Source: an uncultured virus (IMG/VR IMGVR_UViG_3300029911_000018) (taxonomy: Duplodnaviria > Heunggongvirae > Uroviricota > Caudoviricetes). From it: a stretch of 64,000 nucleotides of DNA. The notes beneath the pieces were generated by a model. The model was not told the origin of the DNA. It ran no database searches and saw nothing but the letters and a program-made list of their open reading frames with translations. The position numbers were made by a program, and so were the translations under genes. Below, piece after piece: positions 2,052-50,202 of the stretch. The stretch's first letter is position 1. Each line of letters starts with the position of its first letter. The stretch lies in IMG/VR virus record IMGVR_UViG_3300029911_000018; one strand, given 5' to 3'.

Positions 2052-2712
2052 TTACCAAATCCCCCGTACGTAGTTTGAGTACGTCCAAACCTGTCCAGTC
2101 ACGTGGTCTGTGACCTTCCCATCCTGCTCCCGGATAGTGCGGCGTTTATCCCCCCGCTGGCCGGTGCCTATCTGCTGGCGACGGTCGGCTACTTCCTTGC
2201 CTACCTTTGCCTCTCGCTCCAACGCTTCCAGCTTAGCACTCAGGATGATGAGAGCCAACTCTTTATTACGATACTGACTGCGTTCCGCCTCACAGCGCAC
2301 CATCAACCCGCTTGGAAGATGATGAACCCGAACTGCGGTTTCAACCTTATTGACGTTCTGCCCACCCTTACCACCACTTCGCATTGTGTCCCATTCAAGG
2401 TCTTTGGGGTCGATGCTGAATGTTGTGGTTACCCTCTCTTCAAAGACGGCTACAGTGATTGTTGATGTCTGGCGTCGGCCTCGTCTTTCGGTCGGCGGGA
2501 CTCGTTGCCACCGATGACCTCCAGACTCATTAGCAAAGACCTGCTCAACGTCTTTCCCCGTTACGCGGAATACTGCAATACCGGGTCGCGTCTCAAGAAT
2601 CTCAACGCTAAAGACCCCTCCGCTGACCCAGCCTTGCATAAATAGCCAACTGGTCAGCCACTAGAAGCTTGGCGTCATCGCCACCTTCTGCTGCTCGAAT
2701 TTCAACAATCAT
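2052..2712 (-). CDS. class I peptide chain release factor (RF1-like, lacking domain 1) with programmed +1 frameshift at 2608-2613
   Basis: Frame 0 MIVEIRAAEGGDDA..RRGL then CTT-TAG-C preceded by GGAGGGGT; +1 frame has E.G.HR.QRVPPTE.RGR.QTST and GGQNVNK. Confidence 0.9.
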
Positions 2713-2725
2713 ACTGCCTCCAAAG

Positions 2726-2802
2726 TGGTTCAGGGAGGTGGACTCGAACCACGCTATTCGTTCGACCTTATGAGGGTGAACGCCATACCATCGGACCCCT
2801 GT
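2726..2802 (-). tRNA. degenerate tRNA(CAT)
   Basis: CTCATAA loop, GTTCGAGTC T-arm, CCA end; D arm poorly formed. Confidence 0.55.
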
Positions 2803-2981
2803 GTAATCTGCATGGCCCCTTGGCGGGGCCATAAGCGCCCTAGACTTTCGTCCTCGGCACCGTTCGTCGCAACACTCAATAGCGTCCAACTATTGAGCAC
2901 GGTATCAGCATGACTTAAATCCAACGCCCTCTGGATGAAGGCTGCACGAATTCAGCGGTCGGTTGCTGGCCTACGTTAAAT

Positions 2982-3176: not shown

Positions 3177-3252
3177 TGGCCCCCATGGTAGGAGTTGAAC
3201 CTACATCCCTCGGCCTCAACATGCCGGTGCTCTACCGTTGAGCTACATCGGG
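3177..3252 (-). tRNA. tRNA-Asn-like (GTT) with 8-nt anticodon loop
   Basis: Canonical D/T arms, G73-CCA, CGGC-ATGTTGAG-GCCG. Confidence 0.6.
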
Positions 3253-3455: not shown

Positions 3456-3543
3456 TGGTCGGGGTGAAGGGACTCGAACCCTCAGTGCGCTTAAGCTCCT
3501 GTTTCCAAAACAGGTCGGCTACCATCTACCGATTTACACCCCG
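3456..3543 (-). tRNA. tRNA-Pro(TGG) with long variable arm
   Basis: CCTGT-TTTGGAA-ACAGG, extra arm GCTTAAGC, CCA. Confidence 0.85.
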
Positions 3544-3645: not shown

Positions 3646-3714
3646 CTAGTGGACTTCAGTCCCGTGCAACATAGGGCACGGTCGAAACGAACGGGTTGGT
3701 CGTGTGAAACTCAT
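3646..3714 (-). promoter_or_regulatory. leader peptide upstream of the tRNA-Pro array (probably leaderless mRNA)
   Basis: MSFTRPTRSFRPCPMLHGTEVH (CCA, CCG, CCT); ATG is 6 nt after TATTAT; alternative pairings and a C-rich tract downstream. Confidence 0.65.
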
Positions 3715-3850
3715 ATATACATAATACACAGAAAGTCGGTAAGTTCAAACACTATTTTTGAATATTCTCTATTTTCTTTTTCCACAGGTCGGGAGTATAC
3801 TCTGAACAGCAGGGTCATACCGACCCTCTGGATACCCATGGGAGGATAGT

Positions 3851-9684: not shown

Positions 9685-10323
9685 TTAAATTCGACCCCTT
9701 CTCCATCCAATCAAAACGTAAGAGGTCAAATCGTTTTGCTTAATCTTGATGGCTCTTTCACCGTCCGTTACCCAACGAGTACCGAACTGTGAATTCTTAT
9801 CCCCCGCTCTATTCACCAATGCCATCTTTGCTTTGGTGTCCGCCCTGTGCTTCCGACCAGTCCAAGTGCGTTTACTCGCCGCTGAAATCTTAGCTGACAC
9901 ATCCGGTTCAACACCATGTTCCCTAATCTGGTTGGCCCGAGCCTCACTCATCATCTTGTAATGCTGTGGGTCTCGATGACTCTGAGAACTGTGTGACACT
10001 CTGGCGGCATTGGCGTAGTCGGCCAACCCTTCTCGATTGATATAGTCAAACCCACCAGAGCCCCCTTTTCTCAAATTCATACAGAGAGGGTTACCCCGCC
10101 AACATTGAATCAACTCATCCTCTTTGCCAAATGCTGATTCAACATCGAGGTAGATGAACAGGACTTCCTTATGGAAGTTTTGTTCCCCATATTTTGCAAC
10201 GGCTCGTTTGATGTATGTACCGGAACCGAGGTACGCATCATCAGGGTCTTTCGTTTTGTGAACCCCGAAGTAGAACTTGCCGTTGAGCAGGTTGACGGTT
10301 TTGTAAACCGTGTAGTATGTCAT
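9685..10323 (-). CDS. GIY-YIG (Seg-like) homing endonuclease with NUMOD3
   Basis: VYKTVNLLNGKFYFGVH..YLGSG..KYGEQNF.KE..MNL..GG.GG. Confidence 0.9.
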   Translation of the reverse strand: MTYYTVYKTVNLLNGKFYFGVHKTKDPDDAYLGSGTYIKRAVAKYGEQNFHKEVLFIYLDVESAFGKEDELIQCWRGNPLCMNLRKGGSGGFDYINREGLADYANAARVSHSSQSHRDPQHYKMMSEARANQIREHGVEPDVSAKISAASKRTWTGRKHRADTKAKMALVNRAGDKNSQFGTRWVTDGERAIKIKQNDLTSYVLIGWRRGRI

Positions 10324-10716: not shown

Positions 10717-10724
10717 CTTTCTCC

Positions 10725-10754
10725 AAAAACAAAAGCCGCCCCAATCGGGGCGGC
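10725..10754 (-). terminator. attenuator terminator
   Basis: GCCGCCCC-GATT-GGGGCGGC-TTTTGTTTTT. Confidence 0.9.
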
Positions 10755-10780
10755 TTCGTGATTCATCTGAACTTTGGGGT

Positions 10781-10873
10781 TTAGATTGAGCCCCCTTCAG
10801 ACGACACGAAGCCGTTGCTAAGCAGGTAATACAAGCTTAGGCTAAGGTTCGAGTTGACTGATAAGCGGTTCAT
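10781..10873 (-). promoter_or_regulatory. Leu/Tyr leader peptide with antiterminator
   Basis: MNRLSVNSNLSLSLYYLLSNGFVSSEGGSI; 10790-10814 is complementary to 10751-10779. Confidence 0.85.
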
Positions 10874-11012
10874 ATTCTTCCTCTCGGGCAGTGCCCGTTT
10901 CACATCTGTATACATAATACCGCGAAAGTTGAGGTTTTCAACACTGTTTTTGAATTTATTTTCATAGCTTATGGATTTTTCACTTTCCACCTCCTCTGTA
11001 GGAGGGTTTGAC

Positions 11013-37586: not shown

Positions 37587-38356
37587 ATTTCAAATTCCGC
37601 GACCGCATACCTCGTCCACTTACGTTCCTTAGGGTACCCATGAGGGTTACACACTACTCGGGTTTCACCCAGCATGTAATCGCAAGTCAAGTGCGTATGA
37701 CCATGCACCCACAGACGAGGCTTCTTATCCAAAATAAGCGGTGTCTCATCGGAAACAAAGAACCGATTGATGGGACTCTCGGCGTACATCCTGTTGGTAC
37801 TCAAGTTTGAGGGAAGGTGATGAGACAACACAACTGTATCCGGGCGAATCAGTTTATTGCCGTTCTCACGAAACTCTGTGTTTTTCTGATACACCCAATC
37901 GTGAATATCCTCAATATACTTGAAGTCGTTCAATTGGTGCTCGTATATCTGGTTCAGCGGGTCGAATGGAAACCACATGGCTCCGCCGTAGAAATGAACA
38001 CCATCAATCGTAGCTTCACTATTCTCCAACACAATGTAGTTATCCGGCAGAAGGTCGCGGATGAATTTCTCAACATCGGCACCCACCTTTGAACTGTAAT
38101 ATTCGTGGTTGCCAAAAGTGTAGAGCACCCATTTAGCTTTCTCGCCCAAGAAATCGAACACACGGCGGCACTCATTCCGCGTCTGATGAGCGGGGACTAC
38201 GATGTCTCCGGGGAGGAAGAGGACATCCAAATCTGGAACGAAGGGGATGCGACCCAAGGCATCGAAAGGATTACCATAGTAGAACTCGGTGTGGCAATCC
38301 GAAATTAACTGGGCTTTCACTGTATACACTCCCGTTCCATATACTCGCCGTAGCAC
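37583..38356 (-). CDS. metallophosphoesterase
   Basis: ISDCH.E, GDI, GNHEYY, SHH.PS, HGHTH, CNP.GY. Confidence 0.9.
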   Translation of the reverse strand: MLRRVYGTGVYTVKAQLISDCHTEFYYGNPFDALGRIPFVPDLDVLFLPGDIVVPAHQTRNECRRVFDFLGEKAKWVLYTFGNHEYYSSKVGADVEKFIRDLLPDNYIVLENSEATIDGVHFYGGAMWFPFDPLNQIYEHQLNDFKYIEDIHDWVYQKNTEFRENGNKLIRPDTVVLSHHLPSNLSTNRMYAESPINRFFVSDETPLILDKKPRLWVHGHTHLTCDYMLGETRVVCNPHGYPKERKWTRYAVAEFEI

Positions 38357-38751
38357 TCACCGCCCGGTTGATAGAGTGGAATCTCTGGCAGTAGCTTTGT
38401 GGGAGCCGACTTCACCTTCTTGACCGCTGCTTTCTTAGGGGATTTCGGCGGAGCCGCAGGAATTGGTGCAGCCCACAACTTCTCAAGAAGGGGTGTTGCC
38501 CGACGAATGAACTTCGCCCGGATACGCTTGCGGTGCTCTCTCCACTTCTTGAGACCGGCTTCGTTGTCTTTCCTGAGATAAGGTGCCCCGTACTTCGCCA
38601 CATTCTTGTGGTGTTTTTCCAATATTTGTGAGGCTACTTGGTCGCCCAACTTCATGGCGAATCCTTTGGGAGTTGTATACTTCGTGCCATAATAGGTGAC
38701 GGTCGTAAGTTTTTCGATTTTGATGTTCGACCACTCGTTGAAGAAGGCCAT
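38317..38751 (-). CDS. hypothetical basic protein
   Basis: Coupled ORF. Confidence 0.6.
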   Translation of the reverse strand: MAFFNEWSNIKIEKLTTVTYYGTKYTTPKGFAMKLGDQVASQILEKHHKNVAKYGAPYLRKDNEAGLKKWREHRKRIRAKFIRRATPLLEKLWAAPIPAAPPKSPKKAAVKKVKSAPTKLLPEIPLYQPGGECYGEYMERECIQ

Positions 38752-39167
38752 TAGCTCACCACCAGCTTACGGGACGGTATCACCATAGGAAGGGCACCTT
38801 CAAATAGCCGCAACGCCTCCTTGGTGCCTTCAGGGCTCCGGGGGATGAAGTGCTCGTACGTACCCCAACCGTTGGGAGCATTGAACGCTTCGAACCGGGG
38901 ACGGTCACCCTTCATCAAGGCAAGTCCGGTGGTGAGCGGCTCGATTAGTTCCTTAGCCTTGGTGATGCCAAGCCGCTCTGGACGCCATAGGTGCTGGTAG
39001 ATGCCAGCTTCCATCGCCATCTTGTTCAAGTTGTGGGTGATGTTCTGGTCGAAGACTACATCGGTTTCGGCGGACTTGCCGGTGCCGTCGCAATCGGGGC
39101 AGTTCTTGCAACGTTCGCAGGGAACCTCACGAGGCTCACCCTGTACTAGCCCCACATCTAGGCTCAT
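38751..39167 (-). CDS. conserved phage hypothetical protein
   Basis: MSLDV..NITHNL..MA..AGIY..LWRPE..NGWG.Y. Confidence 0.7.
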   Translation of the reverse strand: MSLDVGLVQGEPREVPCERCKNCPDCDGTGKSAETDVVFDQNITHNLNKMAMEAGIYQHLWRPERLGITKAKELIEPLTTGLALMKGDRPRFEAFNAPNGWGTYEHFIPRSPEGTKEALRLFEGALPMVIPSRKLVVS

Positions 39168-39314
39168 GTCGTACCTTCTTTCTTCAATACTCGTAATCCG
39201 CCGCCACATAACAACTCTTCTGATTGTTACCCCCGTCCACGCGGTTCACTCTTGAAAGGATAGCTGCCTTTAGGCCAACCTCCCCAATCAGGTACTCTTC
39301 TAATACTCAGAATT

Positions 39315-39390
39315 TGGTGTCGCCGATGGGAATCGAACCCACCATCATCTGATTGAAAGTCAGAGGTCCAGACCGATAGACGGCGGCGAC
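39315..39390 (-). tRNA. tRNA-Glu(TTC)
   Basis: TCTGA-CTTTCAA-TCAGA, CCA. Confidence 0.88.
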
Positions 39391-39444
39391 AAACTTAAAT
39401 CCGGGTGCCTTACGTTGACTCCTCGATACACGAAACTCATAACT

Positions 39445-39559
39445 TGGTGCCGGGGTAGGTATCGAAGCCTACAAACTCACAAAACCCGTTCGCATAAACG
39501 GGCATACTTTGTGATGCCTATGGATGCCTCCAGCGAATCTACCAATTCTTCCACCCGGC
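39445..39559 (-). ncRNA. tRNA-Leu-like RNA with no normal anticodon and a giant variable arm
   Basis: GCCGGG/CCCGGC-A-CCA, GAATTGGTAGA D loop, ~40-nt extra hairpin. Confidence 0.65.
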
Positions 39560-39565
39560 GTAGCT

Positions 39566-39641
39566 TGGTGCCCTCGGTAGGAATCGAACCTACGACTTCT
39601 TCCGTGTGAAGGAAGCACTCGTACCGCTGAGTTACGAGGGC
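39566..39641 (-). tRNA. tRNA-Val(CAC)
   Basis: CTTCC-TTCACAC-GGAAG. Confidence 0.92.
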
Positions 39642-39650
39642 GAAACTTAT

Positions 39651-39835
39651 TCTCAAGGAGGGGCATCGAACCCCCATCTCCGCCACGAACGGGCGGTGTC
39701 CTTACCGCTTGTCACTCCGACATCAGAGGCTATTACTAGCTTGGTGCTGACGGAACCCAGTTACATGCTGCTCAGTATATCGACAGCGGAGCAACATTTA
39801 CCCGTCATTGCTCTGCCATGTTAGACGACCTTGAA
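39651..39835 (-). tRNA. tRNA-Glu(TTC)-like gene interrupted by a ~110-nt insertion in the D loop
   Basis: TTCAAGG/CCTTGAG acceptor; GTCT..GGAC D stem; CCGCC-CGTTCGT-GGCGG. Confidence 0.65.
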
Positions 39836-39838
39836 ACT

Positions 39839-39913
39839 TGGTAGCCCTAGAGGGAGTCGAACCCTCATTCTCACCTTGAAAGGGTGCCTTCCTAGCCGTT
39901 AGAAGATAGGGCC
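39839..39913 (-). tRNA. tRNA-Glu(TTC)
   Basis: CACC-CTTTCAA-GGTG. Confidence 0.9.
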
Positions 39914-39933
39914 ATAAACTACCACCGATTACT

Positions 39934-40009
39934 TGGACGCGGAGACGAGGATTTAACTCGTGTCTCAACCTTTGCAGGGTCGCGCCTGATTCGCCTCGGC
40001 CACTCCGCA
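39934..40009 (-). tRNA. tRNA-Cys(GCA)
   Basis: CGACC-CTGCAAA-GGTTG, U73. Confidence 0.82.
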
Positions 40010-40346
40010 TTAAAAACTCTTGCTTCTGCTGGCACACAGGCCGCACAAAGGTGCTTTGCCTCGTGCTTGAAACTCTGTCCCGACCCCGTCTCGAAAACTA
40101 CAGTGAAGCCAATATCATCGAAGTGTGGGCACTCTGGTATACCTTCCAACTTGCAGAACTCCGATAGTTCATAAGCCATCACCATCGTGATCCTCAGGGT
40201 GGTAAGCATCCCACACTTTCAATACCGCAATCAAAACAAAAATACCAATCAAAACGAAAAAAGTTCCAACATCAACGTGCCCGGTGAAACCATACTCGGG
40301 AGTCCATGGTGCTTGCATAGTAGACCTCTACTATGCTTCTCATATT

Positions 40347-40421
40347 TGGTAGCCCTACGGGGTGTCGAACCCCGGTTGTCAGGTTGAGAACCTGCTTTCC
40401 TAACCGCTAGAAGATAGGGCC
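40347..40421 (-). tRNA. tRNA-Glu(CTC)
   Basis: CAGG-TTCTCAA-CCTG. Confidence 0.9.
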
Positions 40422-40432
40422 AAACTACAAAC

Positions 40433-40519
40433 TAGTGACGAGTGAAGGATTCGAACCTTCGTTCCCGCCCTTCGCATAAAGCTACTAAGCGAGTTTTTAG
40501 GCCACTAAAGTAACCCGTC
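40433..40519 (-). ncRNA. tRNA-like RNA with ~13-nt anticodon loop
   Basis: GACGGGT/ACTCGTC acceptor, GAAGG-TTCGAAT-CCTTC T arm. Confidence 0.6.
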
Positions 40520-40827
40520 AAACTGGAGCCGAGGGGGCGTGGTTATCCGCCACGGGATTTCCCTTACTCGGCATAAACTCGATTAACTGCGTCCGTCTTC
40601 ACTTTACTAGCCACCCGCCAAGGTCATGGTTGGGGAAGCAACTTTCGCTAGAGCTATCTTGGTGACCCCTACTCTTCCTTTCGGTACCATGGGTATGGGT
40701 CAGAGCCCATAAATCACCGCAGCCTTCACAGCGTGACAAAGCGACTTGCCACTTACGCACTAAGATACACCGTGTTCTGTAATCACACTATGCACTGTGA
40801 AACTTGGTGGATGTGACAGGAGTCGAG

Positions 40828-41040
40828 CTACACACCCAAAACCTCTTCTACCGCTTCATCAACGGTGGCGATGGCAATCACTTTGCCAGTTTCTGTCGTT
40901 CTCGGCCACCGTAGTTTACCTATGCATTCATCACCCTTATACACGCAGATACTGTACTTCCCGCTTCTCTCACCATCGTTCTCACATAGTGATAAAGTCG
41001 GGTCTTTCGAAATTGCAATTACTGCGTCAATAAAAGTCAT
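40828..41040 (-). CDS. hypothetical protein
   Basis: ATGA-coupled small ORF inside the tRNA array. Confidence 0.55.
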   Translation of the reverse strand: MTFIDAVIAISKDPTLSLCENDGERSGKYSICVYKGDECIGKLRWPRTTETGKVIAIATVDEAVEEVLGV

Positions 41041-41219
41041 TCACCCTCATCCACCAACTCAACCAAGAGTTGTATAGCTTCAATCTCGCGGTCTCCAACC
41101 TGTGAGACCTTACCTGTTACTGTGTCCGTGACCTTGAGCGGCCATTGCTTTGCCTTGATGTCGGCGATGCTGACAGTCGGACAGCTTACTAACGTGAACT
41201 CAGGTACACTATACTTCAT
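41037..41219 (-). CDS. hypothetical protein
   Basis: Small coupled ORF. Confidence 0.5.
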   Translation of the reverse strand: MKYSVPEFTLVSCPTVSIADIKAKQWPLKVTDTVTGKVSQVGDREIEAIQLLVELVDEGE

Positions 41220-41402
41220 TCAATCCACACTTCTCACAAAGGTCAGGGTCGTCTTCATCGCTGAGTGGTGCCTTACAACTCAAGCACCGCTTGTATGTGT
41301 CGGGCTCTTCCAACCCCGCGTACCACGGACTGCAAATACATTCACCCACACAAACATCGTTTTCGCAAACCGCGTTGAACTTCATCTCTTCCTAACTATT
41401 CA

Positions 41403-41506
41403 TGCAACAGGTGGGATTCGAACCCACGGCGTCCATAACAATCCGCCAGCGATATAGGCCCTTAACCATGAGACGTGGAATGCTCTACCAACTGAGCTAC
41501 CATTGC
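41403..41506 (-). ncRNA. tRNA with ~40-nt anticodon-loop region (intron-like insertion)
   Basis: Perfect D arm TAGCTCAGTTGGTAGAGC and T arm GTGGGTTCGAATCCCAC. Confidence 0.7.
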
Positions 41507-41606
41507 ACAAACTTGGTGGACGCAGGGGACTTGGCACCCCATCGCTCGGCGTTACCACTATGGACGCCCACATTTCAATTCCTTAAGCCGAGTTCCGGAC
41601 TTAACT

Positions 41607-41685
41607 TGGTGGAGCTATGGGGACTCGAACCCCACTGGATTCCTCATTGCGAATGAGGTGAACACCCCCGGCATTCCCTAGCCCC
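41607..41685 (-). tRNA. tRNA-Ala(CGC)
   Basis: G3:U70, CCTCA-TTCGCAA-TGAGG. Confidence 0.88.
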
Positions 41686-41769
41686 AAACTTTCGGGAGGA
41701 GAGGTTCTACGCATCTCACACGTTGAGAGCAAATCCCCTCTATCTCCCTGCATCTGTCAGACTGTCGTG

Positions 41770-41837
41770 TAGACACGGAGAGATTCGAACTCTCATTTCC
41801 CCTCGATAGGGGCGTCCTACCATTAGACGACGAGCCT
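41770..41837 (-). pseudogene. degenerate tRNA (Glu-like body, 6-nt loop)
   Basis: TCGTCTAATGGTAGGAC D arm; CCCC-TATCGA-GGGG; normal T arm. Confidence 0.55.
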
Positions 41838-42445
41838 CAGCCCGACAAACCCTTAACCCAAACACTTACCGAACTCTTTGCAACCCCGAGTAAAGCTGCG
41901 ATTTGGGCTTTACAAATTCCTTGTTCAAACAACTCCTGCGCTTTCATTCGTTCAACCGCTTTTATATTTCTCAACCTTGCGGCGGCGGAGCCTATCGCTG
42001 ATAATCCTCTTTGCTTTGCCATCTCCGATGACCCACGAGCGCCACTACGATTGAAATTGTTGCGAATCATATCCCGATAGTTAGCGTCTGTCTTCCAACG
42101 CTCCGCGCTGTTAGTCCTATTGGCCGCTCGAACCCTCCACCCTTGGTTGGGTTGCTGATTTATCCAGTCGAAGCCACCACTCCCACCTTGTCTCAGGTTG
42201 TAGCACAAAGGGTCGGCTCGATACGTTTCAATCAGTTCGTATTCTTTAGCAAATGCCTCCCCTGAGTTGTCGAAGATGAAGCACACGTTCTTTATGAACG
42301 ACTGCTCACCGTGCTTACGAATCGCCGCCTTCAGAACCTTACCTGACCCAAGGTACCCGTCGTACGGGTTCTTGGTTTTGTGGACGCCGAAGTAATACTT
42401 TCCGTTCACCAAATTCTGTGTTCGATACACTGTGTAAAATATCAT
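41837..42445 (-). CDS. GIY-YIG (Seg-like) homing endonuclease, C-terminal HTH
   Basis: Nuclease domain paralogous to 9685-10323; AQIAALLGVAKSSVSVW. Confidence 0.9.
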   Translation of the reverse strand: MIFYTVYRTQNLVNGKYYFGVHKTKNPYDGYLGSGKVLKAAIRKHGEQSFIKNVCFIFDNSGEAFAKEYELIETYRADPLCYNLRQGGSGGFDWINQQPNQGWRVRAANRTNSAERWKTDANYRDMIRNNFNRSGARGSSEMAKQRGLSAIGSAAARLRNIKAVERMKAQELFEQGICKAQIAALLGVAKSSVSVWVKGLSG

Positions 42446-42511
42446 GAACCTATCAGCCTCTCAGGTTTCTGAGGACTTAACCTCTACTAAAGAGGTTGAT
42501 AGTCACGAATG

Positions 42512-42584
42512 TGCGCCTTGTAGGAATCGAACCTACGGTCCCTTCCATGTCAAGGAAGTGCTCTAGCCGCTGAGCCAAAGGCGC
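42512..42584 (-). tRNA. tRNA-Val(GAC), no encoded CCA
   Basis: CTTCC-TTGACAT-GGAAG. Confidence 0.9.
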
Positions 42585-42658
42585 AAAACTAGTTAGCGGC
42601 TGCAAGCGCGTCCGTCCTGCATTTAATCCCTAAACCTGAGGGAACCACACTTTAAAGT

Positions 42659-42735
42659 TGGCGGGGACGACGGGGCTCGAACCCGCGACCTCTACCGTGA
42701 CAGGGTAGCGTTCTAACCAACTGAACTACATCCCC
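42659..42735 (-). tRNA. tRNA-Asp(GTC)
   Basis: CTACC-CTGTCAC-GGTAG, G73. Confidence 0.93.
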
Positions 42736-42745
42736 AACTTCAAAC

Positions 42746-42820
42746 TGGCGGAGACGGCGAGGGTTGAACTCGTATATTCTTCCGTGACAGGGAAGCCCAT
42801 TGCCATTATGGTACGTCTCC
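42746..42820 (-). tRNA. tRNA-Asp(GTC)
   Basis: CTTCC-CTGTCAC-GGAAG, G73. Confidence 0.85.
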
Positions 42821-42914
42821 TCAAGGGTGTGTTCCGCAGCTTTTAGTTCTCACTGCAAGCCCTAAGCCCGTGCGCCTTTGTGCGGTACGACGTTAGGTGC
42901 TACCCTTTGAAACT

Positions 42915-42990
42915 TGGCGGGGCTGATGGGACTCTAACCCACGATAGACGGCTCGACAAGCCGCTGCATTAGACGCTATGCTACAACCCC
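42915..42990 (-). tRNA. tRNA-Asp(GTC)
   Basis: GCGGC-TTGTCGA-GCCGT, G73. Confidence 0.82.
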
Positions 42991-42991
42991 T

Positions 42992-43172
42992 TGGTGGACG
43001 TGTCGTGCCGCTTACGCTGTCATTTAACGACCGGGTACCTCATCTCTCTAATTACGAGTGTGCTGTTCAACTGCACACACCCATACGATTTGAGCTACCA
43101 CAACAGTGTCGTTCAGTAGAGCCATTTGGCTGGATTGTTCATACCCGAAGGGAACTCTCCGGCATCACATCC
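42992..43172 (-). ncRNA. ~180-nt structured RNA ending in ACCA
   Basis: GGATGTG/CACGTCC and TGCCG/CGGCA closing stems; CGGGTAT/GTACCCG inner stem. Confidence 0.5.
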
Positions 43173-43184
43173 TCTACTAAAATT

Positions 43185-43260
43185 TGGTGGACCTAGAGGG
43201 GATTGAACCCTCGACTTCTTCCATGCCATGGAAGCACTCTCCCACTGAGTTACAGGCCCC
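43185..43260 (-). tRNA. tRNA-Ala(GGC)
   Basis: CTTCC-ATGGCAT-GGAAG, G3:U70. Confidence 0.93.
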
Positions 43261-43267
43261 TAAAACA

Positions 43268-43477
43268 TCAAAACCTTTTGCCACTGTTCAGCATATTTAT
43301 CCTTTCTAATACCGAGGGCTCCGTCAACAGCAGACGTAAATTCTCATTCGGCTGTGTTGGCCTTTCCAACATTGCAACAAACTCTTGCCACTGCTCAGGA
43401 CTGAGGCGAATGTTGTTCTCTTCACCAGCCAGTCGGGTATGAACGCTTCTCATGTCGGCATCGAAGTTAATCTTCAT
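43268..43477 (-). CDS. orphan DUF1778/TacA-like antitoxin C-terminal domain
   Basis: IRLSPEQWQEFVAMLERPTQPNENLRLLL; AGGAG RBS. Confidence 0.7.
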   Translation of the reverse strand: MKINFDADMRSVHTRLAGEENNIRLSPEQWQEFVAMLERPTQPNENLRLLLTEPSVLERINMLNSGKRF

Positions 43478-43493
43478 CGCTCTCCTTTCAAAT

Positions 43494-43569
43494 TGGAGGC
43501 GATGATGGGATTCGAACCCATGCATAACGGTTTTGCAGACCGCCGCGTTAACCACTTCGCCACATCGCC
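43494..43569 (-). tRNA. tRNA-Cys(GCA)
   Basis: GCGGT-CTGCAAA-ACCGT, U73. Confidence 0.93.
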
Positions 43570-43587
43570 TATAACACCAACAAAACT

Positions 43588-43661
43588 TGGAGCGGATAGT
43601 CAGATTTGAACTGACGGTGACAGGGTGGAAGCCTGTTGCCTTACCGCTTGGCTATACCCGC
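43588..43661 (-). tRNA. tRNA-Gly(TCC)
   Basis: ACAGG-CTTCCAC-CCTGT, U73. Confidence 0.9.
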
Positions 43662-43667
43662 TTTGAA

Positions 43668-43802
43668 TCAGAGATATTTTCGTACCTCCAGTGGTCCGAA
43701 TCGGTAGCTCTCATATGAGCTACATCCCCACATAAGAGAACTGTTCAATCGGAAGGTCTTTCCAAAAGACCAACTCCGCCACCAGAAATAGTACCTCCAC
43801 AT
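43668..43802 (-). CDS. 44-aa aromatic-rich microprotein
   Basis: GAGGAG RBS; MWRYYFWWRSWSFGK.. Confidence 0.45.
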   Translation of the reverse strand: MWRYYFWWRSWSFGKTFRLNSSLMWGCSSYESYRFGPLEVRKYL

Positions 43803-43887
43803 ATCTCCTCAATTTCTCGACGCCTCTCCGCCGTGCCACACCACTTTAGTCCGCAGGACTCGGTAGGTGTCACCCCGCTTAAAACTC

Positions 43888-44283
43888 TGCACTAGACTTA
43901 TAGCCGGAGTTCTGTCCAGAGGGTTACCCCTCCTGTACAATCATTCGTCTCGGCCAGCCGTTACCGTCTGGCTCTAGCCCCCAACCCGCCGATTCATAAC
44001 GGTACGAGCAGTACCTGTCGGCCTATTTGAGGTTGCACCGCGTAGAGATTGCCCGTTTCACCCGAATTTAATCGGCTCGTCTCTGTTGCTCTAATCGTCA
44101 CACTCAACATCGGACGGGTTGTTCCCATAGGGTTGGTGGAAATCAACCAGACGTATAGCTGCGTCCCCTTACGCTACGTCCCCGAACAAGTGTGCTAGGG
44201 TGTTACCCTATACGCTGCTCTGTGGTGCTCCGAACTTCCTCGAAGTGGTATTGCGCCACGTCGCGATTGTCCAGTCTAGTGCA
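43888..44283 (-). ncRNA. rnpB: RNase P RNA
   Basis: P1 TGCACTAGACT/AGTCTAGTGCA; P4 halves GAGGAAGTTCGGAGC and ACAGAACTCCGGCTATA; GCAACAGA, GGGTGAAACGG, GGTAAC loop. Confidence 0.92.
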
Positions 44284-44310
44284 TACTTAATGAAACCGAG
44301 GCCGAAGCTG

Positions 44311-44655
44311 TTACTGTACTGCCGACGTGCGCTGTACTGCCACGCTACGAAGGTAAGCACGCATCTCGTCCGAGAACTCATTGAACATCTCACCCTTATC
44401 CAACCAGTGCAAAATGGTCTCCCAGTTCTCTTCCTCAGGCGTCCACTGACCCTCCAAGCCGTAGCAAGAGCAGTGACCGCCACTTACTGAGAACAGCTTC
44501 CCGTCCTTCTCGAACAGAACGAATGCCGAACCCGAATAGTCCTCGTAGCTATACACCGCTGCGTAGACCAACGCATCCTTCAATTCATCCTGACCAATAT
44601 TGAACTGGTCGCATACATCCTCAACGCTGCCGAACCTATCTACAAATACTTCCAT
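44311..44655 (-). CDS. conserved phage hypothetical protein
   Basis: Y..EDYSG.A.VLF..DGKL..V.G.HCSCYGLEGQW. Confidence 0.7.
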   Translation of the reverse strand: MEVFVDRFGSVEDVCDQFNIGQDELKDALVYAAVYSYEDYSGSAFVLFEKDGKLFSVSGGHCSCYGLEGQWTPEEENWETILHWLDKGEMFNEFSDEMRAYLRSVAVQRTSAVQ

Positions 44656-44724
44656 CGTTTTCTCCTTGTGGTACAAACCATCGAGAGAAACGGTGAGGTA
44701 ATTGTTCGACCTCGGTTTCAAATT

Positions 44725-44803
44725 TGGTGGACCGTCAGAGATTTGAACTCTGCTGATATTCTGTGTGCAAGACAGATAAACACTCCTAGCATTTCCACGG
44801 CCC
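44725..44803 (-). tRNA. tRNA-Ala(TGC)
   Basis: TCTGT-CTTGCAC-ACAGA, G3:U70. Confidence 0.85.
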
Positions 44804-44940
44804 AATATTGTCAAACATCATGTAATCACCGGCTGGCCGGGATTAAAAATCTTGGTGGCTTTGGCTCACGCCGGGGCACCACCCGCGCCCCTCGAAGTAA
44901 ACTTACCCAGTCTTGTGGACTGGAGTCTTGCTCCAGAGCT

Positions 44941-45015
44941 TGGAGCGGCTGGTGGGATTCGAACCCACGACCTCTTCCTTGGCAAGGAAGCGTTCTACCA
45001 CTGAACTACAGCCGC
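44941..45015 (-). tRNA. tRNA-Gly(GCC)
   Basis: CTTCC-TTGCCAA-GGAAG. Confidence 0.93.
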
Positions 45016-45045
45016 ATATACTTCAATACTGCAAAAACCAAAACT

Positions 45046-45121
45046 TGGTGCTCCAAGTGGGACTCGAACCCACGATAGTCTGCTTGTAGGGCAGATGATT
45101 TAGCCGCTAATCTACCGGAGC
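45046..45121 (-). tRNA. tRNA-Val(TAC)
   Basis: TCTGC-CCTACAA-GCAGA. Confidence 0.9.
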
Positions 45122-45133
45122 AATCTTTACTGC

Positions 45134-45165
45134 AAAAACGAAAGGCCAGCCTTTTCGGCTGGCCT
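45134..45165 (-). terminator. attenuator terminator
   Basis: AGGCCAGCC-GAAAA-GGCTGGCCT-TTCGTTTTT. Confidence 0.9.
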
Positions 45166-45185
45166 CGGTTTCGATTTCAGACTGG

Positions 45186-45329
45186 TTAGTTAGTCTTAAT
45201 CTCTCCCGAGGCCATGGTATCCTCTCCCGCGCAACCGGCTTCAGCGGCTGCGACAGCTACGACTACGCCCACGACGCCAGTGTTCGGTGCGTCCATGGTG
45301 TTAATCGAAATGTTGGTACGGATAGTCAT
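45186..45329 (-). promoter_or_regulatory. Val/Ala/Gly/Glu/Asp/Cys leader peptide with antiterminator
   Basis: MTIRTNISINTMDAPNTGVVGVVVAVAAAEAGCAGEDTMASGEIKTN; TGGCCTCGG (45206-45214) pairs with the terminator 5' arm. Confidence 0.88.
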
Positions 45330-45897
45330 GGTGTTTGTCCTTCTGTTACATAATACGCAGAAAGTTGAAATTTGTGCAAGCTGTTTTTCATTTATTTTCA
45401 CAGCTTATGTTTCAACCCACGCACCTGTACAAGGTGAAATTCCTCGGTGTGCTGCCTGTGTTGCACCACCCAAACTCGGCTTGACGTTAGTCTGGAACCG
45501 GACCATCGAACCCGGTATCTCCGAGGAACCCATAAACTGAGAGTACCACCACCCCGTTGTGGAAATCAACCCCCATGTGCCTTACGATAACCATCGGCTA
45601 TCGAATTCAACAATGAAATGGATTGGCCTTTTGTCTCCACTTTCACTTTCCGGGTTCGAGGTTCCCGCCTGCAAACGATACTTCACCCTCGAATACCCCG
45701 CCAGTTGCTTCCCAAGAAGTATCACCTCATTCATAATACACAATTCAGAGGTGCTAACACAACCAAATTTGAAAACTCCCGAGGGAGGGACGGTTCAGTC
45801 AGGTTTATCTGTGCCGTCCAATCCTTCCCGAAACCCTTGCGGGTTTGCGTACCTGACGAATTAAATCCATAGTACACCAACGAGGAAGAAACCGCAA

Positions 45898-46221
45898 CTA
45901 CCTGCCATTTTTGATGACGTTTATCCATCCCTGTGTTTGCTCACTTACAGTAGGTGTGGGTTTTACCGTCTTGCGGGTTCGAGGCTTGGAAGTCTCGAAC
46001 CGCTCGGTCTCCGCAGCGTACCGCACTAGAGCTTGCCGCAGATTCATAGCAGCCTCGTAACCCTCCAGTGCAGACTCACAGCCTTGGCACCGCCCTATAA
46101 TGGCACCACGGCCATGTGCAGGGTTGTAGCGTGGGTGCTTGGGACACCGCAGTGTCAGTTTGCTCTTGGATACAGTCTTCAGCCGCAGCTTGGTGGCGTC
46201 GTCAAAGCAGAACTTCAACAT
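45898..46221 (-). CDS. hypothetical Zn-binding protein
   Basis: CPKH..CQGC; AGGAG RBS. Confidence 0.6.
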   Translation of the reverse strand: MLKFCFDDATKLRLKTVSKSKLTLRCPKHPRYNPAHGRGAIIGRCQGCESALEGYEAAMNLRQALVRYAAETERFETSKPRTRKTVKPTPTVSEQTQGWINVIKNGR

Positions 46222-46222
46222 G

Positions 46223-46867
46223 TCATCTCTCCTGTTGTTTGCAGTCGCAGTCTTCTTCGCAGGGTTCCATACTCAGTTGATACGCATCAATGGACTCCCG
46301 CACATCTTGTGTTCCCCAACAAATGTAGCTATGGGCTCCATTACCCAAGTGATGCCCCTCTTTGGCGAATAGCTCATACTCACCAGCACCAAGGTCCACC
46401 AGCGTGAACCCATACTTCATCGCCAGTTCAATAATCGTCAACTCGACCGGCGGACGCTTTGTGGTCGTCTTGGGTGTTGTCGGCTCCAGTGGAAAGTCAG
46501 CACCCCAAGCGAAAATCTGCTTGTACTTGCCGGGGTAGCGGCGATAGCGGGGGTGGTTCCGCATCTTGTCGTGGTCTACCCCACGAGTGTGGGCTAATTC
46601 GTGAGCAATGACAAAAGCAAAGTCCACCTTATCCGGGTTGTGTTTGCTTACCCGAACACACATGGAGTTTGACCGAAGCGTGGCGTACCCTGAGCTACTA
46701 CCAGTACTATTGCGGGTGTATACTACCCGCACATGAAGAGCCGGGGCTCCCCGTTTACACAAGTCAGGCCGCTCATCCTTTGCCACATGTGCGATGAAGG
46801 CTTTGATATGGTCTGACCGCCAATGCGTTTTGTTGTTCAGTTCGATTCGCATGTCTTTATTATACAC
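46223..46867 (-). CDS. zincin-like metallopeptidase
   Basis: VIAHELAHTRGVDH. Confidence 0.7.
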   Translation of the reverse strand: MYNKDMRIELNNKTHWRSDHIKAFIAHVAKDERPDLCKRGAPALHVRVVYTRNSTGSSSGYATLRSNSMCVRVSKHNPDKVDFAFVIAHELAHTRGVDHDKMRNHPRYRRYPGKYKQIFAWGADFPLEPTTPKTTTKRPPVELTIIELAMKYGFTLVDLGAGEYELFAKEGHHLGNGAHSYICWGTQDVRESIDAYQLSMEPCEEDCDCKQQER

Positions 46868-47012
46868 CCACAGGTGCCTTAAACCTCTGATTATACACGT
46901 TTTAAGGTAATGTTTATCGAACTCACCAACGTAAACCCTTTATTTTCAACAAAAAATTTTATCAAATTTTCCTCTTGACACGCTATTTTCCATTTTCGGT
47001 TATTATGACTGT

Positions 47013-47402
47013 ATGAACACTAAATCGTCCCGCGAAGAGCGGTTTGCAGCTTGGACAGAGGAAATGATGAAGGCCGAGGCAACTGTCACGGCTGTGGTCA
47101 AAACGGTTGTAGACAAATACGACCCAGAACAGCTTTTGAAGATCGGTTGTCCTTCGGACGAGTATGATTCGGTATGTTCCATCATCGCGGGTGCGATTGT
47201 GCGGGAGGGGATGCATCAAATAACAAAGCAGGAGTTGGGAAACCTTATTGCCTTTGCATGGCAATATGAGTTCGGTCCATGGACAACACCTGTTCGTTAT
47301 TACTCCGTGTTTTACACGATAGCCGAGGAGATTCACCCGTTGATTCCAGAGTATGACCTAAGAATCAACTCTCAGGTTCAGACTCTTCCATCTCCAGAAT
47401 AA
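47013..47402 (+). CDS. DUF1871-like protein
   Basis: YDP..L...GCP.DEYD; own TTGACA..TATTAT promoter. Confidence 0.65.
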   Translation: MNTKSSREERFAAWTEEMMKAEATVTAVVKTVVDKYDPEQLLKIGCPSDEYDSVCSIIAGAIVREGMHQITKQELGNLIAFAWQYEFGPWTTPVRYYSVFYTIAEEIHPLIPEYDLRINSQVQTLPSPE

Positions 47403-47952
47403 TCTCAGTTTCATCCAAGCGGAGTCTTAGATAATCCTCATTGCATTGTTTTGCAAGGACACCAACACCCTCCACCATACCAAATTCGTGTGCTGAGATA
47501 AGAACTTCTCCACCAAATCGGTGAACAAAAACTGCGAGAAGTTGAAGTAATACCTCTTCTCGCAGTTCCTGTGGATTGACAATCTCAAAGCCGGGGTCAC
47601 TCATCACGTAAACCTCTTGATGCTAAAGGGTCAGAAAGTTCAAGCGATGATTTTCTTAAGGCTACCTGCCGCCTGAGCTACACGGGCTGTCTCGCTTGGT
47701 GAAGCAACGATAAGGGGAGATATTTCAACCTCAACAAGAGCAATCTGATTACGTGGAAGAAGGGTGAATTTACCCCCCTCCTTCTTCAACATACCCACTT
47801 GAGAATATTGACCCATCATCTGATTGATGGCTGCTTCAGCCGCGTCAGCAGGACATTTAATGTCCTGCTCAACCACGGAGCCATCAAGTTTGGTTATAAC
47901 GAAGTGTAGATTAGTTTCCATTCAATCCTCACTGGTTAATACTGGTTTTTAG

Positions 47953-50202
47953 TTAAACCAGTTCGCAAAACCCACCGGCACAGGCCAACGTCTCCTGAAG
48001 CTTGGTGTTGTCTTCCTCTTCGATGAGTTCCTTGTAGTCCACATCGACATACTCACGTTGAAGGTCACACCAATACTTCCAGTTGTGAACCTCCTTCAGG
48101 CAGTAGGTCATCTGCTTCCTGTCTCCCTCGAAATAGCGGTCAGCAAACTGACGAGCCCGACGAACCCAATCAGCTTTAGCCAAGCATTCCAGATAAGCCC
48201 TGCGGTCTTCGATAGTTTCGAAGTCAACATTCTCATCTGAAGTGGTAGCGATAGAATCACAATCCAAGGTGTTGACACCAGTAACGTAGTCACAAGCCAA
48301 CCACAAGTTATCGTCAAACCGGGCAAGACCATCCACGATTAACCCTGATGCCATCAAAGAGCCGTCACCATACATCTTCACAATCTCAGCCGGGGTGTGA
48401 ATAGCCACAAACGGAGCTTGTGGATAGTCAAGGTCTCCTGTGTTAGATAACAATGAAATACCAGCGAAATCCTCGCGGTGTCCATAGATGTATGCTTCCA
48501 CCTCATCCCACTCGTTCGGCTTCACGTTGATCGTATTCGAAACGTTATGCCTCAAAAATGATTGAGCGCAGAGTTCATGATTACGCCCTGCGGCGACCCA
48601 GTTGTTTTGCGTCAAACTGACAAGCTCCAGTAACTTAAGCGCGGTTACATCCTTCTTCGTTCTTGCCCCCTCAGGGACTTCAATACAAAAGGAAATAATC
48701 TCGTCGGTACCATTTTTACTCCAGACACTTTTCTCAACCGCACGTGGGTTCCTCTGTTGAAAGAACTGAAGTGGGGCTTCAAGCATGTTGGCCTGTACAC
48801 GACGGATATAACGCTTCGAGTGGTGAGCGTGAATACCTGAAGAAGTCCCAAGGATGCAGGACGTGGTCCCGGCTGGCTTAACACATGTGCAACGGGCGGC
48901 TTGACGAATACCAATTTTGGCGGCTATCTCCTTGTTGACTGCGACCACAAGTGCTGCCATCTCCCGTTGAATCTCTGGATCAAACAAAACCTCAGGACTG
49001 TCCATCATCCCTGTGATGGAAACACCTAGAAGAGCCTCACGACGCACAATATTCTCGGTGGTCACCCCAAGATATGAGAAGTCTGTGTAACCGGCCTGTG
49101 CAGTACCTATAATGGCAGCAGCACGAGCAGCAATAGCAAAGTCTTCCTTCGTCTTGCACTTCTTACCGTTAATCTCGCAAAGGTTGCAAAATGCCCACCC
49201 CGACAGGCCAGTGGTAAGGTCAACTGGAAACATCCCAATCTCACCACACGGGTTGTACATTATCTCGGTGGAGTCCGACCAGACAAATCCCGGTTCACCA
49301 AACTGACGTACCGACTCCATCAAATCATGAAAACTCTCCGGATTAGTAACACCTCGAACGAGCACGACTGAGTTGTTCGACCGACCACGCTGGGGGTTGG
49401 TGTAGTACCAATCTCCTGTTTTGGCCTTAATCATCAAATCATCGTTGGGTGAAAACAAACAGATGGTGGCAGAGCGACGAACCCCGCCGCTGAGCACAGC
49501 ATCACTGGCGTGCATCATGATGTCATAAGCATCAATCGAACGAAGACGAGTCTGACCACTTGCTACACAGCGGTCAAGCAGTTCCCGAATAGCTTCAAGA
49601 GATTTCATCAACGGTTCGGAGCCGGGAGCCTTACCTACACCTGAGGATAGTTTCGAACCCTTTGAACGAATAAGGTCGAAGTTGAATTTCACTTCAAACC
49701 CCGCCCAGTCAGGAGAATCAGGATGAGGATGGTATGTGGCTAAGAGCACACCCAGAGCATCAGCCCAACCCTCAATGGAGTCAGGAATAACAAACTCACG
49801 AATAGGACGATTTACAAGGTTGGAATGGAAGTCAGGAAGTTTAGCGATATGGTGTTGCTGAACAGAGAAACCCACACCGGCTCCACAGAGAAGCAACCAA
49901 AAACCTTCTTGAAAAAACCGAAGCCGGTCACAATAAGAAACGGTGCAGTTATACACACGGGCGTGTTTACTGAGGGCTGGTGCTCCGGCGTATTGAAGTG
50001 CTCGTTGACTCCCAAGTACACGCTTTGCCTTGGATTGTTCAAAAGCCCAAGTTAGTTCATCAGTGATTTGGGGGTAGCGGGATAGGTGCATTTCTAGCAC
50101 CCGGTCGATGGCTTCATTCCATGTATCTCTACGCTTCAAGTCAGAGTTGTAACGAGCGTATTTGGAATGAAAAGTGTAAGACTGAAGAGCCTTGATAGAC
50201 AT
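47953..50202 (-). CDS. nrdJ: class II (B12-dependent) ribonucleotide reductase
   Basis: YNC, GGVRRSA, NPCGEI, CNL.EIN, KPAGT, C-terminal CAGGFC; no beta-subunit gene nearby. Confidence 0.92.
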   Translation of the reverse strand: MSIKALQSYTFHSKYARYNSDLKRRDTWNEAIDRVLEMHLSRYPQITDELTWAFEQSKAKRVLGSQRALQYAGAPALSKHARVYNCTVSYCDRLRFFQEGFWLLLCGAGVGFSVQQHHIAKLPDFHSNLVNRPIREFVIPDSIEGWADALGVLLATYHPHPDSPDWAGFEVKFNFDLIRSKGSKLSSGVGKAPGSEPLMKSLEAIRELLDRCVASGQTRLRSIDAYDIMMHASDAVLSGGVRRSATICLFSPNDDLMIKAKTGDWYYTNPQRGRSNNSVVLVRGVTNPESFHDLMESVRQFGEPGFVWSDSTEIMYNPCGEIGMFPVDLTTGLSGWAFCNLCEINGKKCKTKEDFAIAARAAAIIGTAQAGYTDFSYLGVTTENIVRREALLGVSITGMMDSPEVLFDPEIQREMAALVVAVNKEIAAKIGIRQAARCTCVKPAGTTSCILGTSSGIHAHHSKRYIRRVQANMLEAPLQFFQQRNPRAVEKSVWSKNGTDEIISFCIEVPEGARTKKDVTALKLLELVSLTQNNWVAAGRNHELCAQSFLRHNVSNTINVKPNEWDEVEAYIYGHREDFAGISLLSNTGDLDYPQAPFVAIHTPAEIVKMYGDGSLMASGLIVDGLARFDDNLWLACDYVTGVNTLDCDSIATTSDENVDFETIEDRRAYLECLAKADWVRRARQFADRYFEGDRKQMTYCLKEVHNWKYWCDLQREYVDVDYKELIEEEDNTKLQETLACAGGFCELV

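Follow-up and report, generated by a model that had tools for sequence, protein, structure and literature searches.

What could a short open reading frame (ORF) followed by a strong terminator be doing directly ahead of a set of tRNA genes in a phage genome? We consider this question in a 64,000-nucleotide (nt) stretch of DNA from an uncultured virus of the Caudoviricetes (IMG/VR record IMGVR_UViG_3300029911_000018), hereafter called the window, in which a 47-codon ORF on the minus strand precedes an array of 17 tRNA genes. Judging from sequence, we find it likely that this ORF and the RNA around it form a ribosome-mediated (leader-peptide) transcription attenuator that gates the tRNA array. 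This reading is well supported by the anatomy of the module, its conservation, the covariation of its paired segments, and the existence of paralogous modules with swapped codons. From these we infer that the leader would be transcribed and translated, the direction in which the switch would turn, the role of a hairpin in pausing the polymerase, and that a shortage of tRNAs, rather than of amino acids, would be the signal.

The leader ORF and the array behind it

The features on which the argument rests are the following, from the promoter to the array.

45350-45400, minus strand: promoter, with an A-rich stretch (45400-45381), a -35-like hexamer (45379-45374), and a -10 TATTAT (45355-45350); 9 of 12 matches in the promoter scan with a 17-nt spacer (17-18 nt as read from the sequence).
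45338-45342, minus strand: Shine-Dalgarno-like AAGGA, 8 nt 5' of the ATG, read from the sequence.
45186-45329, minus strand: 47-codon leader ORF, from an ATG at 45329 to a TAA stop at 45188-45186; found by translation, with an open frame of 38-47 codons in seven versions.
45219-45278, minus strand: regulatory run, codons 18-37, 19 GNN codons plus TGC; found by translation and a six-frame window scan.
45213-45253, minus strand: nucleotide-invariant block, comprising the last 13 codons of the run and ACC ATG, with a small hairpin around the Cys codon; from alignment and folds.
45206-45214, minus strand: segment 2, the 5' strand of the antiterminator, within codons 39-42; exact complement of 45168-45160.
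45173-45201, minus strand: inner hairpin within the antiterminator stem-loop, its apical part containing the stop codon; from folds.
45160-45168, minus strand: segment 3, the 3' strand of the antiterminator, with 7 nt in common with the 5' arm of the terminator; from complementarity, folds, and covariation.
45132-45166, minus strand: intrinsic terminator, with stem 45166-45157/45151-45142, a 5-nt loop, and a T run at 45141-45132; from the terminator scan, 10 pairs, 7 of them G-C.
39315-45121, minus strand: tRNA array of 17 genes called by ARAGORN for Val, Ala, Gly, Glu, Asp, and Cys; from ARAGORN and Rfam.

Codons 18-37 of the ORF translated from 45329-45186 are 19 codons of the form GNN and one TGC. 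When 20-codon windows are slid over all six frames of the whole stretch (127,876 of them), the single maximum of 19 GNN codons falls in this ORF, and only seven reach at least 17, all seven inside it. The leader uses 14 of the 16 GNN codons, GGG and GTT being absent, and its run encodes all six amino acids served by the array and no others. The anticodons of the array are tac, gac, and cac for Val; tgc, ggc, and cgc for Ala; gcc and tcc for Gly; ttc (twice) and ctc for Glu; gtc (three times) for Asp; and gca (twice) for Cys. Both the run and this set of tRNAs had been listed in an earlier sequence-only reading of the locus, and both are recovered here, the translation giving exactly the 20 codons listed and ARAGORN finding the listed anticodons plus one odd 85-nt Ala(agc) call (40435-40519, minus strand) with a low Rfam score of 36.5 bits.

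The first gene of the array, tRNA-Val(tac), starts at 45121, 20 nt past the terminator stem, and this gap has no room for another promoter. On the minus strand of the upper array, a simple scan found no consensus-like promoter, with only two weak minus-strand matches further in. Ahead of the leader, a conserved 16-nt motif (45362-45347) spans the -10 of its promoter; the window contains three copies of this motif versus 0.36 expected, a number reached by none of 100 shuffles, and all three copies lie on the minus strand upstream of tRNA arrays, with the same layout in relatives.

Relatives were collected by scanning IMG/VR for the promoter motif, by a degenerate scan for the portion of the peptide that stays constant, and by a gapped scan for conserved pieces (IMG/VR and metagenome contigs), a true leader being defined as an ORF of fewer than 120 codons with at least 15 GNN codons out of 20. 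The 89 pattern matches gave 21 true leaders with 10 distinct sequences, which we read as seven independent versions, one recombinant, and two sequences cut by contig ends; two of the records, G001 and G005, are identical over the region and add nothing independent. The order of promoter, Shine-Dalgarno sequence, ORF (38-47 codons), terminator, and tRNA-Val(tac) is kept in all seven versions, with a purine-rich GGA or GAGG 4-9 nt before the ATG in five of them. In the six versions scored, 18-19 codons of the best 20-codon window are GNN; L080 has 15, in a window taken around the Cys codon, and each leader has a single TGC, except L080, which has two.

Conservation of this kind could also be that of an ordinary small-protein gene, encoding a hydrophobic Val/Ala/Gly-rich peptide and equipped with its own terminator, in which case the array would be expressed by constitutive leak-through or from other promoters and the codon match would be compositional. 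The frame does remain open in the seven versions, with a constant acidic, Cys-containing stretch, and hydrophobic low-complexity peptides likewise keep composition over order, as is seen here, where the order of the Val, Ala, and Gly residues varies among versions. However, the entire C-terminal tail varies too, and it is wholly changed while the RNA pairing that it encodes, described below, persists. At the end of the run, a block of 41 nt is 100% identical in four versions on the MAFFT alignment A1, with no synonymous change, when the neighbouring segments are 39-79% identical. Moreover, the hydrophobic stretch spans only about 12-18 residues, with an Arg or Pro interrupting it in one version, no PHROG family matches the peptide, and the peptides of the paralogous modules presented below differ greatly in composition, each fitting its own array. 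Together with the terminator placed 20 nt before the first tRNA and the lack of a consensus-like minus-strand promoter in the upper array by simple scan, these observations leave the small-protein explanation a slim chance of being right. Invariant codons beside a variable tail would rather fit a selection that acts on the codons and the RNA and not on a folded peptide.

One may conversely suppose that the ORF is incidental and untranslated, and that the region serves the tRNA precursor purely as RNA, acting at its head in processing or stability or as an insulating terminator. GNN-rich sequence is indeed G+C-rich and readily forms hairpins, the Shine-Dalgarno sequence is weak in two versions, and translation of the leader is a prediction. 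Against this, the frame stays open through whole-codon indels (38-47 codons), all seven versions keep the start codon and the placement of the stop codon in the antiterminator loop, neither the other two sense frames nor the antisense frames show conservation across versions, and Rfam covariance models give no match at E <= 1 in 45100-46000, which makes this a very improbable account of the locus. At Rfam gathering scores, a scan of the whole window returns only 29 tRNAs and one RNase P RNA. A 108-residue ORF antisense to the leader (45214-45540) was also considered as a real gene and rejected, neither its frame nor its length being conserved; the antisense frames are open because GNN codons read backwards cannot yield stops.

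The alternative RNA pairing

The terminator at 45166-45142 is the strongest match of the terminator scan over 38000-48000, with a hairpin energy of -21.3 kcal/mol. Its 5' arm has a competing partner: segment 2 (45214-45206) is the exact reverse complement of segment 3 (45168-45160), which overlaps that arm by 7 nt, and the duplex of the two segments reaches -19.6 kcal/mol, a value equalled by none of 200 shuffles. When the RNA is folded up to the 3' arm of the terminator, the minimum free energy (MFE) structure is a long stem-loop whose outer helix is the 9-bp pairing of segments 2 and 3 and whose inner hairpin holds the stop codon. The proposal of the sequence-only reading that a segment just after the run pairs with the 5' arm of the terminator is thereby borne out.

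The same structure recurs in the relatives. Before the 3' arm of the terminator exists, the antiterminator is in the MFE fold of all seven versions; in all seven, an inner helix of differing sequence occupies the same place and the stop codon lies inside the stem-loop, 19-26 nt 5' of the conserved core of the terminator arm. In six of the seven, no part of the leader pairs better with the terminator arm than the segment following the run, with 0, 0, 18, 5, 3, and 2 of 200 dinucleotide shuffles equalling the pairing. As for the changes within the helix, an extra U in segment 2 is matched by an extra A in segment 3 in two versions, a C to U change in one version gives a G-U pair, and an extra A in L080 is unpaired and forms a bulge. 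The terminator is itself the RNAalifold consensus of the seven versions, one of its stem positions being G-C, A-U, or C-G depending on the version.

Two MAFFT alignments (A1 and A2) misregister segment 2 in some rows, and antiterminator pairs were not counted on them; instead, a covariance model built from the seven GNN attenuators only was used to align 12 attenuators. In this alignment, which is fitted to the structure and hence leans towards it, 76.5% of cells are paired versus 65.4 +/- 2.3 when shuffled, with none of 500 shuffles as high. Four of the nine antiterminator pairs change on both sides, when slid controls are 29-53% paired and show 0-1 such pairs.

On this basis, the module could operate as follows. 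Host RNA polymerase would start at the sigma-70-like promoter and a ribosome would load on the 47-codon leader. Were the GNN and Cys codons of the run read fast, the ribosome would pass segment 2 and enter the stop-codon stem-loop, segment 3 would then be free to pair with segment 4, the terminator would form, and transcription would halt 20 nt before tRNA-Val. Were the tRNAs for Val, Ala, Gly, Glu, Asp, or Cys scarce, the ribosome would slow in the run, segments 2 and 3 would pair while emerging, and this pairing would block the terminator, so that the polymerase would enter the 17 tRNA genes and the RNase P RNA gene embedded among them. The circuit would amount to a negative feedback on tRNA supply, because the products of the array read the run. 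In addition, the hairpin of the invariant block (45253-45213) is a candidate RNA polymerase pause hairpin that may couple ribosome and polymerase. That stalling in the run permits antitermination and full translation causes termination had been put forward by the sequence-only reading; the order of the parts, the alternative pairing, the covariation, and the match of the codon cassettes to their arrays all support such an attenuator, the read-through and the direction of the switch being predictions.

The sign of the switch could in principle be the opposite, a ribosome stalled at the last codons of the run covering segment 2 and causing termination, and fast release letting the antiterminator re-form. 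Some geometry is compatible with this, since a ribosome with codons 34-37 in its A site would cover part of 45214-45206 and a ribosome at the stop codon of the window does not itself cover segment 2. Yet 16 of the 20 codons of the run are far enough upstream to keep segment 2 free, the stop codon is near enough for a terminating ribosome to cover segment 2 in five of the seven versions, and a positive feedback, supplying fewer tRNAs when they are short, has no evident use. We regard this inverted switch as hardly credible.

The array behind the attenuator contains more than tRNA genes. A full-length bacterial type A RNase P RNA gene is embedded in it (44282-43885, minus strand; Rfam RF00010, 162.5 bits). 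This gene sits downstream of the attenuator and therefore would be co-regulated with the tRNAs it processes. In the main text of a survey of huge phages (PMC7162821), RNase P is not mentioned. Two further tRNA matches in the array come from Rfam only, at 41403-41506 (104 nt) and 41770-41837 (minus strand). Two paralogous ORFs of about 200-210 residues with near-identical N-termini, at 41837-42445 and 9685-10323 (minus strand), lie inside two different tRNA arrays and, by motif reading, look like GIY-YIG homing endonucleases.

Paralogous modules with other codon cassettes

The attenuator of the array considered so far has a paralogous counterpart in the window, upstream of another array.

10720-10926, minus strand: paralogous attenuator, with a 30-codon leader (10873-10781) and a terminator (10757-10731); same promoter motif, covariance model E = 3.4e-5.

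Its leader contains six Leu codons of five kinds, two Tyr codons (both kinds), and eight Ser codons, and the module, with a 9-bp antiterminator and a strong terminator, stands upstream of tRNA-Tyr and six tRNA-Leu genes. The same layout precedes the Tyr/Leu array of a relative, G003, and in another, G004, the Leu/Tyr leader uses all six Leu codons and the array has all five Leu anticodons. Over the three records, the codon TTA in the leader tracks tRNA-Leu(taa) in the array, two having both and one neither. G003 also carries a third leader, in which all four kinds of Thr codon occur (seven codons in total) together with two Ile codons and two CAA Gln codons, ahead of tRNAs for Ile, Thr(cgt, ggt, tgt), and Gln(ttg); a Thr/Ile/Gln leader likewise precedes a Thr/Ile/Gln tRNA array in G006. 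The covariance model made from GNN attenuators only finds all five Leu/Tyr and Thr/Ile attenuators in the loci searched (E 6e-8 to 5e-3); the modules are therefore paralogous, with their codon cassettes swapped. A Pro cassette ahead of Pro tRNAs, presented below, is a weaker instance of the module. In a cross-table of 14 leaders of four classes, the amino-acid set of the leader's own array is the most enriched in 14 of 14, with the reservation that these sets were fixed after the arrays had been seen and that the four classes are the independent units.

These modules bear on what exactly would be sensed. One alternative is an attenuator responding to general translation capacity or amino-acid supply, through any slowing of ribosomes, and not to a shortage of the tRNAs of its own array. 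A stall anywhere before about codon 34, including at the early Thr, Ile, Asn, and Ser codons, would leave segment 2 free, untranslated RNA would read through too, and classical attenuators respond to charged tRNA and hence to amino acids. A general sensor would not, however, account for four paralogous leaders with four cassettes that each match their own array (14 of 14), for the tracking of tRNA-Leu(taa) by TTA in three of three records, or for run codons kept with no synonymous change. We consider such a general sensor unlikely, though not negligible.

Several observations weigh against the attenuator reading and temper our confidence in it, over and above the fitting of the pair-count alignment to the structure and the choice of amino-acid sets after the fact. 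With regard to the codons, the first 17 of the leader are mostly Thr, Ile, Asn, and Ser, which no tRNA of the array reads, and the eight Ser and four Asn codons of the Leu/Tyr leader have no matching tRNA in its array (Leu, Tyr, and Ser are the three tRNA classes with a long variable arm; no tRNA-Ser occurs in the Tyr/Leu array of the window). The absence of GGG from the leader had been attributed in the sequence-only reading to that of tRNA-Gly(CCC), and both are indeed lacking here, no Gly ccc being found among the 17 ARAGORN tRNAs of the array, but G003 and G004 have tRNA-Gly(ccc) in their arrays and leaders still without GGG, so the attribution does not hold and the mirror fails at the level of isoacceptors. 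With regard to translation, the Shine-Dalgarno sequence is poor in two of the seven versions (L044 and L047).

With regard to the RNA, nothing upstream pairs with segment 2, that is, there is no segment 1 in the style of trp to sequester it, and untranslated RNA should therefore read through; the outer antiterminator helix of L042, at -9.1 kcal/mol, is weak and equalled by 133 of 200 shuffles. Folding with and without a ribosome footprint, which the sequence-only reading had put forward as a check, gave a mixed outcome: under equilibrium folding, a ribosome-sized mask at the stop codon flips the antiterminator to the terminator in only four of the seven versions. The window and L047, which have longer tails, keep the antiterminator under the mask (0.59 and 0.79) unless the helix is barred from closing around the ribosome, so that for the window the flip depends on this steric assumption, and in L044 the terminator is favoured in every condition. 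The seven versions are also close relatives of one another. Lastly, in four metatranscriptome runs (4-5% of sampled words), contigs were found over 44939-45009 and 45450-45519 only and none over the leader, which is neutral either way. The contigs at 44939-45009 are tRNA-Gly-like with unlike flanks, i.e., foreign. The 70 nt at 45450-45519, upstream of the promoter, match with one difference a 553-nt contig from an RNA library that is otherwise unlike the window, and Rfam finds nothing there.

The window belongs to an uncultured large phage, whose long ORFs match families of phage replication and lysis, namely a UvsX-like recombinase, helicases, a DnaB-like helicase, and an endolysin-like domain, and near-identical or related stretches occur in IMG/VR records of up to 231 kb, with a CheckV completeness estimate of 74%. 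A blastn search of a phage collection with 44000-47000 gave matches at the tRNA level only, and a tblastn search with RNR found no phage isolate above 47% identity; on these comparisons, no cultured relative is close to the window phage. Searching with the protein of the neighbouring RNR gene yielded 16 loci, 15 of which were examined: the three with an RNR of at least 76% identity carry the array, and in the other 12, whose RNR is 52-58% identical, no tRNA lies within 10 kb. Among the loci searched, the array with its leader is therefore confined to a narrow clade.

Other features of the window and its relatives deserve mention. The third copy of the promoter motif lies before a 22-codon ORF (3646-3733, minus strand) containing CCA, CCG, and CCT, upstream of tRNA-Pro genes with anticodons tgg, cgg, and ggg. 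This ORF is probably leaderless, its ATG lying a few nt after the -10, and no clear terminator was seen at it; in G003, the Pro tRNAs come after a homologous ORF that has six Pro codons (L128, around 8832). Among the Pro tRNAs of the window, ARAGORN calls a tRNA with a four-base anticodon (gttg; 3177-3252, minus strand; Rfam 49.9 bits), which may be a frameshift-suppressor-like tRNA or a mis-call, and, with no Rfam counterpart, an 81-nt Pro tRNA at 3460-3540 (minus strand). A release-factor-like gene appears to be split over the overlapping frames 2608-2889 and 2052-2639 (within 2052-2889, minus strand); its downstream part matches RF-1 domain PHROGs and, of phrog_19918, the last half only. 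A programmed frameshift of the prfB type may account for the split, or the gene may be broken. Between the shared promoter and the Thr/Ile/Gln leader, the relatives have 170-250 nt of G+C-rich sequence in which a short motif is repeated (L127, 6465-6650, and L132, 7192-7420, both minus strand). Relatives also carry a tRNA with anticodon cta, reading the amber stop (L127, 8324-8397; L132, 8918-8995), and G003 has a tmRNA gene (L127, 12375-12775).

Known attenuators and the proposed control of phage tRNAs

Leader-peptide attenuation is textbook for amino-acid operons, and some enterobacterial leaders are multivalent, such as those of thr (Thr and Ile codons) and ilvGMEDA (Ile, Val, and Leu codons), next to those of trp, his, leu, and pheA. 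The phage module resembles these attenuators in having a short ORF close to the promoter that contains a run of regulatory codons, a terminator before the first structural gene, an antiterminator that has bases in common with the 5' arm of the terminator and whose own 5' strand stands where a finishing ribosome disrupts it, and a single leader sensing several amino acids. The general scheme is laid out in parts of PMC1183508 and PMC3082878. The phage module differs from amino-acid operon attenuators in controlling tRNAs and an RNase P RNA instead of biosynthetic enzymes, in a run that samples six amino acids through 14 GNN codons instead of repeating one or two, in being made of three segments without the segment 1 "protector" hairpin, and in being phage-borne, with several paralogous copies carrying swapped cassettes and no match to an Rfam leader family.

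Another known system is the pheST attenuator of Escherichia coli (pheM leader), which controls phenylalanyl-tRNA synthetase. Here too, leader-peptide attenuation acts on a component of the translation machinery, and the speed of decoding thereby feeds back on the capacity for it; unlike the phage module, pheST controls a synthetase, senses one amino acid, and is cellular. T-box riboswitches likewise let the state of a specific tRNA set read-through via a choice between terminator and antiterminator. They bind uncharged tRNA directly, without translation, and control synthetase and amino-acid genes, not tRNA genes, whereas the phage module includes an ORF, lacks a specifier-loop architecture, and does not match the T-box family of Rfam.

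Among phages, the array resembles the annotated clusters of T5 in having tRNA genes among small ORFs and homing endonuclease genes, and T4 likewise has a tRNA cluster with small ORFs and homing endonuclease genes. Unlike the window, the T5 annotation, on which alone this comparison is made, places promoters directly before tRNAs and has no module of promoter, short ORF, terminator, and tRNA. Two candidate parallels were set aside on inspection. In the T5 annotation, where regulatory small ORFs might be sought among the tRNAs, there are small hypothetical ORFs and promoters with no leader-terminator module, and no support for such a role was found in PMC4810235. For E. coli pheU, considered as having an attenuator-like leader, the K-12 sequence shows a promoter abutting the tRNA, with neither ORF nor terminator. 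A full-text search of the literature found no description of leader-peptide control of tRNA genes, and the main text of PMC7162821 makes no mention of attenuation or leaders. The control proposed here would be of a known type, leader-peptide attenuation, in this case applied by a phage to tRNA genes.

It is tempting to go one step further and to see in the paralogous attenuators of giant phages a demand-driven tRNA supply split by codon family, in which each would open its own array only when the corresponding tRNAs run short; this we advance tentatively, at somewhat less than even confidence. Shortages opening the arrays might arise, for example, from the decay of host tRNAs or from attack by tRNA-cleaving defence nucleases. 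In the current view, as given in parts of PMC10264068 and PMC11464382, the tRNAs of phages stand in for those of the host that are lost through anticodon nucleases and comparable defences, and the attenuator reading would offer a testable link to this role. Being compact (about 230 nt), with a sigma-70-type promoter and an intrinsic terminator, the module might also serve as a sensor of chosen tRNA pools. If the reading is true, these would be the first tRNA genes autoregulated by their own products via the ribosome, and the sorting of tRNA genes into arrays by codon family would be explained. Decoding speed would then feed back directly on the synthesis of tRNAs, and the phage would have a built-in sensor of tRNA-targeting immunity.

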